Shown here: piece by piece, positions 46,270-46,672 of the stretch | How positions within the stretch are numbered: position 1 is the first letter of the stretch | Layout: every line of letters begins with the position of its first letter | Origin: a virus | Lineage: Duplodnaviria; Heunggongvirae; Uroviricota; Caudoviricetes | Reading direction: 5' to 3' (one strand) | Virus record (IMG/VR): IMGVR_UViG_3300043436_001089 | DNA length: 64,000 nucleotides | Notes under the pieces: generated by a model | Seen by the model: only the letters and a program-made list of their open reading frames with translations | Database searches by the model: none | What the model was told of the DNA's origin: nothing | Translations under genes and position numbers: made by a program

Positions 46270-46672
46270 ATCTGGCTAATGTGTTTAGATATTCTTAGGC
46301 AATGGCGAGTAGATATGAAATCTACAAGCCAAAAAACATTCTTGAGGAACTTAGGCGATGATGAATTAAAAGATTACAGTGGAGGATTGTCTATGTCGCA
46401 CCGACCCCGTGAAGGGACTTTTCCGTATTCGCTGTTAAAGTGTAGGTATATTCATCAGGATTCTACACACAGCCCAGGCCCTCTATCGCAATTACTATGA
46501 CCTGGCATACTATCAACTATTAAGATATGGGAAACGTTTCTACGCAGGGGGTAGACGTTTAAGCATCAAAGGGTAGTCCCATAAATTTGTGTTGGTCACA
46601 CTTCTACCGTCACTGCACGATGAGGACGGAATTTCGCCGCATTTCAAGGTAGCGGAACCTATAGACCAATAT
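46270..46672. ncRNA. Candidate ~400-nt structured noncoding RNA (family unassigned)
   Basis: At least 8 nested stems found by eye in an otherwise gene-dense genome. Confidence 0.55.

Follow-up and report, generated by a model that had tools for sequence, protein, structure and literature searches.

The window studied here is the whole 64,000-nucleotide stretch of IMG/VR record IMGVR_UViG_3300043436_001089, from a tailed phage (Caudoviricetes). A gene-free gap of about 430 nt (46243-46674) separates the gene p75 from the gene of a head-tail adaptor (neck) protein, both on the minus strand. The original prediction had called this gap the largest of the window, and it is indeed the biggest intergenic space in its neighbourhood. 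The genes found next to the RNA described below are MazG, small ORFs with no assigned function, the neck protein and a dNMP kinase. The features of the locus are as follows.

45457..46242, minus strand: gene of the head-tail adaptor (neck) protein, 261 aa, downstream of the RNA (phrog_211 head-tail adaptor Ad2, E = 4e-22; weak Pfam SU10_adaptor match)
46243..46287, minus strand: leader of the neck gene, outside the RNA, ~45 nt at the end of the gap, common to relatives without the RNA
46265-73, minus strand: late-type box AGATAAATA in the neck-gene leader, the same in every relative with or without the RNA
46288..46670, minus strand: the whole RNA, ~385 nt (nhmmer homologue profile, alignments A1/A2, relatives with and without the element)
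46675-46902, minus strand: p75, 75 codons, no function assigned (ORF list)
46904-47182, minus strand: p92 (ORF list)
47130-47564, minus strand: MazG (ORF list and family matches)
47564-48721, minus strand: p385, 385 aa (ORF list)
48751..48779, minus strand: sigma-70 promoter ahead of p385, TTGACA-17-TATACT with TG before the second hexamer (11/12 consensus)

The boundaries of the RNA were set by comparing relatives with and without the element, and the nhmmer profile of the homologues matches the window at 46261-46672. The 5' end lies 5-8 nt past the stop codon of p75, and the 3' end is the conserved CCUAAGAAUAUC. In the leader that follows, the ribosome-binding site is AGGTA in the window, and box and ribosome-binding site are found ~30 nt upstream of the ATG in all relatives, RNA-positive and RNA-negative alike. 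All loci share a late-type box GATAAATA and a ribosome-binding site AGGTAA, usually within an inverted repeat. This leader resembles the hairpins of the T4 late genes e, soc and 49, in which the late promoter lies in a hairpin whose 3' arm is the ribosome-binding site. The hairpin here is a feature of the neck gene that occurs with and without the RNA, and it adjoins the RNA rather than forming part of it.

Using the neck protein as query, the 80 closest loci were taken from IMG/VR (84-100% protein identity), and the gap sequence was present in 12 of the 80, at 82-99% nucleotide identity (i.e., in about one in seven close relatives). In RNA-negative loci, the upstream gene and the neck gene are ~60-70 nt apart; in four of them (L009, L020, L024 and L069), p75 is followed by 61-66 nt and then by the neck gene. 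Presence of the element does not alter the end of the upstream ORF, which is ...KD* in either case, and in the empty sites the stop codon leads straight to the late promoter. The comparison of RNA-positive relatives with empty sites therefore identifies the element as an insertion of ~385 nt between the stop codon and the neck late promoter.

A search with two conserved words, combined with a profile search, yielded 91 matches, 52 of them distinct and full-length, down to ~60% identity, and an independent word from loop L6 yielded eight more loci. Each genome carries a single copy of the RNA. The related contigs are ~35-40% complete at 135 kb according to CheckV, and one relative, G002, is complete, with 364 kb and terminal repeats. 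No similar DNA was found in GenBank phage records by blastn of the gap, and in 185,579 bacterial and archaeal species genomes the RNA was not found beyond chance 19-mers. Three MAG contigs (Limnohabitans, Bacteroidales and Streptococcus) contain the 19-mer of loop L9 and were rejected as carriers of the RNA, about four chance matches being expected; under nhmmer, the MAG contigs L168 and L170 match only in the seeded 21 nt, and L169 gives nothing. These comparisons show the RNA to be an accessory cassette, which only a minority of these closely related freshwater T4-like phages (giants of ~350 kb) carry. Their hosts may be freshwater Burkholderiales, with Limnohabitans and Polynucleobacter as candidates.

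Within the RNA, position i corresponds to window coordinate 46678-i on the minus strand. A model of 88 pairs in 19 helices, including four pseudoknots, was built from a covariation scan and inspection, and was scored on 43 distinct homologues from uncultured phage contigs. For control, the partner columns were slid by 1-3 positions, and 500 column shuffles were also made. The model presents 91.7% of cells paired over the 43 sequences, compared with 32-44% in the slid controls, 58 of 88 pairs changed on both sides, compared with 17-26, and a covariation score of 0.338, compared with at most 0.075. The observed values were reached by none of the 500 shuffles, except for further pair types, which were reached by one. 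RNAalifold, run independently, gave 44 pairs, 27 of them compensated. Compensation is also apparent by eye: one helix reads CUAC/GUAG, CUCA/UGAG or CUGU/ACAG, and another reads CCAGG/CCUGG, CCAAAAG/CUUUUGG or CCGGG/CCCGG. The original prediction had proposed a covariation analysis as its check, and the 88-pair model stands strongly above both slid controls and shuffles.

There is no ORF conserved across the homologues, in which reading frames break between copies. A 73-codon ORF on the plus strand (46279-46500) was considered as a gene and rejected, since the homologues do not keep it intact (it is broken or frame-shifted) and it matches no family. When the helices are read on the minus strand, they contain 155 G-U cells versus 51 A-C cells, and optional inserted hairpins present GUAA or UUCG tetraloops in the minus orientation only. 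The G-U excess and the tetraloops in a single orientation thus place the RNA on the minus strand of the window, which is also the strand of both flanking genes; this settles a point that the original prediction had left uncertain. As judged from the comparison of homologues, the fold is under purifying selection on this strand.

With abundant covariation and no conserved ORF, the predicted structured intergenic RNA of ~400 nt is borne out. A folding energy like that of shuffled sequences had been named beforehand as something that would speak against it, and such an energy was found (z = +0.46 on the minus strand and -1.87 on the plus strand). This unremarkable single-sequence energy would count against the RNA if it stood alone, yet it is overridden by the covariation, and the observation is confirmed. 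The parts of the fold are listed below.

46589..46669, minus strand: 5' domain, containing PK1, P4, P2, PK2 and P3 (covariation)
46664-69 / 46592-97, minus strand: PK1, UUGGUC/GACCAA, 5/6 pairs changing on both sides
46657-60 / 46647-50, minus strand: P2, AGGU/ACCU, 3/4 pairs with changes on both sides
46652-55 / 46637-40, minus strand: PK2, CCGC/GCGG, H-type pseudoknot with P2, 3/4 pairs with changes on both sides
46625-29 / 46607-11, minus strand: P3 hairpin, CCGUC/GACGG, 2/5 pairs with changes on both sides
46526..46583, minus strand: three-way junction domain of P5, P5a and P5b (covariation)
46551-59 / 46533-43, minus strand: P5b, covarying as CUAC/GUAG, CUCA/UGAG and CUGU/ACAG
46474..46505, minus strand: P6 hairpin, CCAGGUC/GGCCUGG, 100% paired, 6/7 pairs covarying
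46481-98, minus strand: loop L6, 18 nt, AUAGUAAUUGCGAUAGAG, nearly invariant (C190U and a few other positions vary)
46431..46473, minus strand: P7 (GCUG/CAGC) and P7a (GUGUAG/CUACAC) (homologue comparison)
46451-57 / 46359-65 (313-319), minus strand: PK3, loop UGAUGAA of the P7a region with UUCAUCA, 99.7% paired, 4/7 pairs changing on both sides
46368..46422, minus strand: second three-way junction, of P8o, P8 and P9 (covariation)
46418-22 / 46368-72, minus strand: P8o, AAAAG/CUUUU, 4/5 pairs covarying
46414-16 / 46405-07, minus strand: P8, CCC/GGG (model helix)
46396-402 / 46378-83, minus strand: P9, 3/6 pairs covarying
46384-95, minus strand: loop L9, 12 nt, closed by P9, CAUAGACAAUCC, near-invariant
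46355..46358 (320-323) / 46486-89, minus strand: PK4 candidate, UCGC with the L6 bases GCGA (co-changing positions)
46303..46331, minus strand: P11 hairpin, UGGC..GUAGAU / AUCUAC..GCCA, 87% paired
46338-47 and 46291-99, minus strand: repeated motifs CCUCAAGAAU and CCUAAGAAU flanking P11 (alignment)

The 3' partner of PK1, GACCAA, is the loop of hairpin P4 (46599-601 / 46589-91). P5, which pairs UAUGGGA with UCCCAUA, is 100% paired, with five of its seven pairs covarying, and contains P5a, a conserved GACUACC-loop-GGAUGC that is capped by UUCG in many homologues. PK3 occurs in the variants CGAUGAAU/AUUCAUCG, UAAUGAA/UUCAUUA and UUAUGAAAG/CUUUCAUAA. In the search keyed on L6, in which L9 was not part of the key, only two variants of L9 were found (GAUAUAGUCAAUCC and ..AAUCCC). 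The 3' strand of P11, AUAUCUACUCGCC, is invariant, and the 5' strand changes register among lineages. Apart from the element itself, the window contains no complement to L9 or to the 3' motif with fewer than three mismatches, as would be sought for antisense targets. Two readings of single words were rejected: GGAAAAGUCC, which might seem RNase P-like, is not conserved and pairs locally in P8o and P8, and the hammerhead-like CUGAUGA forms the 5' side of pseudoknot PK3, which covaries.

The stems reported in the original prediction are all present, with the exception of one misplaced word, and are backed by the homologue comparison. The stem 46303-14/46320-31 corresponds to P11, 46440-45/46463-68 to P7a, 46474-78/46501-05 to P6, 46526-32/46577-83 to P5 (enclosing P5b), and 46592-97/46664-69 to PK1 (enclosing P3, CCGTC/GACGG, and PK2, CCGC/GCGG). 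The misplaced word is GGGACT, given at 46404-09, which actually lies at 46414-19, ten bases away. The long-range pairing of this word with AGTCCC is not supported: P5, which covaries strongly, already engages GGGA, and the bases proposed as its partner vary freely.

The 3' end of the RNA may have two states. The UCGC of the PK4 candidate is not the sole partner available to the GCGA of L6, since the 3' strand of P11 contains the identical word at 46305-08, which would pair equally well. Four positions, 190 and 350 (C/U) as well as 322 and 372 (G/A), change in concert in L133, L156, L135, L101, L094 and L149, i.e., in six sequences, which represent perhaps three lineages or independent events. 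This pattern is as expected of a 3' end that toggles between two pairings. Of all segments of the RNA, the 3' strand of P11 pairs best with L6, at -12.8 kcal/mol; shuffled L6 loops reach -10.8 +/- 1.9 kcal/mol, so the real duplex lies within about one standard deviation and does not exceed chance. Given this energy, we regard the switch as no more than possible.

The RNA was compared with Rfam 15, whose 4227 models include tRNA, tmRNA, RNase P, 6S, group I and II introns, riboswitches, GOLLD, ROOL, OLE, HEARO and raiA. At gathering thresholds, the whole window presents no match to the RNA. Elsewhere in the window lies the only whole-window match, freshwater-2. When the threshold was relaxed to E <= 10 for 46100-46800, only two snoRNA-like chance matches on the plus strand appeared, and the homologue L157 scored nothing above 14 bits. 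ARAGORN found no tRNA or tmRNA in the region, which, together with Rfam, agrees with the earlier failure to match the element to tRNA, tmRNA or RNase P. By these searches, the RNA falls into no catalogued family.

In its general properties (more than 300 nt, multi-domain, covarying and non-coding), the RNA fits the large ornate orphan RNAs exemplified by GOLLD (RF01998), ROOL (RF03087) and OLE, which form a descriptive class and not a homologous family. These, too, are several hundred nucleotides long and rich in pseudoknots and covarying helices; phages or prophages carry GOLLD and ROOL, which act as RNAs rather than as mRNA leaders and have a biochemical function that is unknown or partly known. 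Self-assembly of GOLLD and ROOL into multimers is described from cryo-EM (bioRxiv 10.1101/2024.12.08.627333; PMC12286853). In comparison, the phage RNA is shorter (~385 nt), has no Rfam match even at E = 10, and occurs in giant T4-like lake phages with no association with tRNA genes.

Other classes were also compared. The group I introns of T4-like phages (td, nrdB, nrdD) likewise measure a few hundred nucleotides, are pseudoknotted with GNRA tetraloops, are optional between close relatives, and sometimes lie beside GIY-YIG endonuclease genes. The phage RNA, however, interrupts no gene, sits after a stop codon and has no RF00028 match at E <= 10; in our own reading its helices do not map onto the group I order, and no P1-P10 or guanosine-binding site was recognised. 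A riboswitch or cis-leader class was set aside because the neck promoter intervenes, there is no terminator, and other genes lie downstream in L101 and L094. HEARO/omega-RNA, TnpB reRNA and retron or DRT ncRNA were discarded for want of an IsrB/IscB, TnpB or reverse-transcriptase neighbour.

In every context, the RNA begins at most ~50 nt after the stop codon of an upstream ORF on the same strand, with a distance of less than 10 nt in the window and in the divergent L094, and of ~25 nt after mazG. This upstream ORF varies by locus (mazG, p92, p75, a 195-aa ORF, a GIY-YIG gene, and ORFs without assignment in the divergent loci). Such tight and varied junctions leave no room for a shared promoter of the RNA. 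No late box was found on the minus strand at 46680-48800, nor any terminator-like site at 46600-48900. As p75 ends an operon with a near-consensus sigma-70 promoter, the RNA is probably made early, the p385-mazG-p92-p75 operon carrying it as the 3' tail of an early transcript. Late neck transcripts, in turn, would not contain the RNA, since the late promoter lies downstream of it.

In the main clade, the RNA always adjoins the late promoter of the neck gene, which is also compatible with a role in cis. In the divergent L101 and L094, it lies among small unassigned ORFs ~2 kb upstream of the terminase gene, and in L149 it has no detectable neck or mazG neighbour. One clade has an extra 60-nt module of two hairpins between the RNA and the promoter, and in L099 a small ORF lies there. 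The divergent contexts and the intervening modules favour an autonomous RNA in a hot spot for accessory cassettes.

Over 40 loci, the mean identity is 76% for the RNA and 71% for the neck-gene DNA, which makes the RNA as conserved as the gene beside it, and the two identities correlate only moderately (Spearman 0.57). Discordant pairs occur both ways, with 95% identity in the RNA and 68% in the neck gene for some pairs, and 75% and 94%, respectively, for others. At the level of sequence comparison, this discordance shows that the RNA has been exchanged between phage lineages. In L151, the first base of the RNA is where a gene for a Seg-like GIY-YIG/NUMOD3 homing endonuclease ends.

A search for a partner gene compared nine RNA-positive contigs, including the complete 364-kb G002, with six RNA-negative ones, and the presence of a G002 ORF was scored only where flanks showed that the contig covers the region. 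None of the 146 testable ORFs in 0-140 kb of G002 tracks the RNA, a result that applies to ~40% of the genome, the contigs being fragmentary. The one perfect co-occurrence match was dismissed as a spurious ORF inside the RNA. The upstream ORF was likewise rejected as a constant partner, since it differs between loci and most of its versions have no Pfam or PHROG match.

The reading we prefer, which we hold at about even confidence, is that the element is a free-standing gene of an uncatalogued family whose product is a self-folding RNA acting in trans and made early as an mRNA tail. The product would be a compact RNA of ~385 nt with four pseudoknots and two three-way junctions. It would have no promoter of its own and would be transcribed as the 3' tail of whatever gene precedes it, with or without subsequent processing; here the preceding unit is the early sigma-70 operon p385-mazG-p92-p75, so that the RNA would be present early in infection. 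Where we speak of its ends, abundance and timing, we infer them. As a folded particle, it would act through the near-invariant L6 and L9 and the invariant 3' strand of P11, and candidate modes are the binding of a conserved host or core phage component, the binding of a small molecule, or catalysis. It would not be a dedicated regulator of the neck gene.

Two alternatives tie the RNA to its neighbouring genes. It could shield the early mazG-operon mRNA against 3' exonucleases, or serve as a point of processing or insulation between early and late units, and its position after an ORF with no room for a promoter, exactly at the early/late boundary here, would suit such an mRNA 3'-end element; still, four pseudoknots and near-invariant loops, kept down to 60% identity, exceed what a protective hairpin needs, the gene upstream differs (mazG, p92, p75, the 195-aa ORF or the GIY-YIG gene), and relatives manage without the RNA, which makes this role unlikely. 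We consider it slightly less probable again that the RNA is a cis-acting sensor or leader of the neck gene (i.e., a giant leader that resembles a riboswitch or binds a protein, present on read-through transcripts and using P11 as expression platform). The RNA does lie directly before the neck gene and in the same orientation in more than 45 distinct loci, its 3' end has mutually exclusive pairing options, and the ribosome-binding site of the neck gene lies within a hairpin in most relatives. However, the neck late promoter stands between RNA and gene, so late transcripts would lack the RNA; most relatives express the neck gene without it; P11 is followed by no U-run, and no terminator was found; in L101, L094 and L149, the RNA has no neck gene nearby; and a module of ~60 nt or an ORF of 68 codons intervenes between RNA and gene in several lineages.

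The other alternatives concern what kind of element it is. A very distant kinship with Polynucleobacter-1 (RF01718), whose Rfam model would cover only the 5' 141 nt of a longer RNA, appears about as improbable as the cis leader. According to the account of this motif by Weinberg et al. (2010, PMC2864571), Polynucleobacter sp. QLW-P1DMWA-1 supplies the one genomic instance, all others being environmental, from samples listed as fresh water or estuary; detection frequently loses the 3' half, and the gene upstream of most copies resembles P-SSM2 locus PSSM2_218. By Pfam, PSSM2_218 is a SegE GIY-YIG endonuclease, and a reading of it as MazG was dropped for this reason. Both RNAs occur in fresh water, four helices follow one another in the motif as they do in the 5' half of the phage RNA, and the three-way junctions are similar (ACUA-CC-loop-GGAYG). 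In L157, cmscan aligns the full RF01718 model to the 5' half, with the same helix order and the shared ACUA-CC-loop-GGA(U/C)G, yet at 13.3 bits (E = 2.8), where the gathering score is 37, and in this homologue only: the model has no match at E <= 10 in the window, in L120, L146, L141 or L108, or in five phage genomes. Genuine Polynucleobacter-1 copies were gathered by a pattern scan of lake metagenomes, and their conserved block in lake contigs measures ~420 nt; 151 sampled Burkholderiales genomes contained no instance. At five of 11 genuine sites, a model of the 5' half of the phage RNA (R1) scores 6-9 bits, full-length and on the correct strand, where about one is expected by chance (an estimate) and noise scores as high or higher, whereas the 3'-half model (R2) finds nothing at the expected place and nhmmer finds nothing at all. 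The phage RNA, in addition, was not found in the bacterial genomes searched, and the 3' halves have no detectable similarity. Since the scores are weak and at noise level, we do not file the RNA under RF01718. Somewhat more doubtful is a ribozyme or mobile RNA that cleaves or splices itself or is associated with an endonuclease (cf. group I introns and HEARO) and spreads as a cassette. Its size and pseudoknot density are typical of large ribozymes, the presence/absence polymorphism and the phylogenetic discordance indicate exchange, a GIY-YIG/NUMOD3 Seg-like gene adjoins it in L151, and the weakly similar Polynucleobacter-1 is described downstream of PSSM2_218-like genes (PMC2864571), i.e., of SegE by Pfam. 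Against this, no Rfam ribozyme or intron matches even at E = 10, no gene is interrupted, the empty sites consist of an intact stop codon and promoter that require no joining of exons, L151 is the only locus among those screened with an endonuclease-like upstream ORF, and neither terminal repeats nor target duplications were seen. Finally, a decayed protein gene or a signal at the DNA level (an origin, a packaging site or a protein-binding array) would recall the 73-codon plus-strand ORF, but that ORF is broken in homologues and without family match, and compensatory changes in helices with a G-U preference on one strand are not expected of a pseudogene or DNA signal; we give this reading almost no credence.

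To our knowledge, RNAs so large and so intricately folded are rare, and almost every earlier class has proved to be a ribozyme, the core of a ribonucleoprotein or a self-assembling particle. The covariation model, the boundaries and the empty-site relatives suffice for synthesis of the RNA and for tests of its folding, self-processing, multimerisation and binding, and the possible distant link to Polynucleobacter-1, along with the ~420-nt block, merits the attention of specialists. A bolder reading is tentative and clearly less probable than the self-folding, trans-acting RNA that we prefer: the element may represent a new class of large functional RNA, either a ribozyme or a high-affinity binder or sponge of a conserved host molecule or immune signal, serving giant lake phages as an early and optional cassette for take-over or counter-defence with no dedicated phage protein. 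The RNA is confined to giant uncultured freshwater phages and is optional between near-identical genomes. Being optional, exchanged between lineages and apparently without a dedicated protein nearby, it is a candidate for an RNA-only accessory function in the conflict between phage and host.

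In most relatives, the leader of the neck gene, which encodes the head-tail adaptor, is formed by an inverted repeat, TTACCTGATAAATAC..TATCAGGTAA, and the window's own copy of this repeat is degenerate. The late box lies inside the resulting hairpin, the 3' arm of which contains the ribosome-binding site.

Window 46243-46287, minus strand: neck-gene leader, compared with L009:520-600 and L020:3940-4010 (relatives' loci without the large RNA, a ~385-nt pseudoknotted non-coding RNA) and with most other loci directly upstream of the neck gene.

In early read-through RNA, the hairpin would hide the neck ribosome-binding site, while a late RNA starting within the hairpin would free it. 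The T4 genes e, soc and 49 follow the same logic: their ribosome-binding site is hidden in read-through early RNA and free in late RNA.

Late-type boxes were also found at two other places in the window. The first is the control region preceding p385 (the first gene of the minus-strand operon upstream of the large RNA), where p385 has a near-consensus sigma-70 promoter.

Window 48751-48829, both strands: divergent control region, with the sigma-70 promoter (minus) and a late-type box (plus).
Window 48816-48824, plus strand: late-type box CGATAAATA, preceding a virion protein gene at 48830.
Window 53931-54009, minus strand: freshwater-2 RNA (RF02980), 65.9 bits, exceeding its threshold.
Window 54018-54026, minus strand: late-type box AGATAAATA.

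Given that the freshwater-2 RNA starts 9 nt past its late-type box, a late transcript probably carries it as its 5' leader.

The surroundings of the large RNA vary among relatives' loci.

L157:6990-7080 (minus strand) and L108:690-780, also in L159, L150, L160 and L137: extra conserved module of ~60 nt, in a single clade.
L151:1741-2349, minus strand: Seg-like homing endonuclease gene, 202 aa, GIY-YIG (motif IYLYKK...YLGKT) plus NUMOD3.
L095:3904-4491 (minus strand), L155:12167-12754 and L148:6035-6709 (minus strand): ORF family of 195-224 aa.

The extra module, which follows the large RNA and precedes the late box, comprises GACCGAACUUAG-loop-CUAAGUGAAGG followed by GAUGAC-UUCG-GUCAUC, and has no match in Rfam. 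In L151, the large RNA starts where the endonuclease gene ends; compared with L051, the neck genes are 94% identical, yet the large RNAs only 75%. The ORF family, which has no match in Pfam or PHROG, separates mazG from the large RNA at several loci.

The interval that separates the neck gene from the dNMP kinase gene is a further cassette hot spot, since this spacing varies from 60 to ~2450 nt among relatives. In L001, a twin contig 99% identical to the window, the interval (4784-5239) is ~400 nt longer than in the window (45397-45456).

Finally, genuine motifs of Polynucleobacter-1, the Rfam family (RF01718) that the 5' half of one large-RNA homologue, L157, may weakly resemble, below threshold, are surrounded in lake metagenome contigs (L296-L375) by a conserved non-coding block of ~420 nt, about three times as long as the Rfam model of 141 nt. 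The RNA of the Polynucleobacter-1 family appears to exceed its catalogued size.
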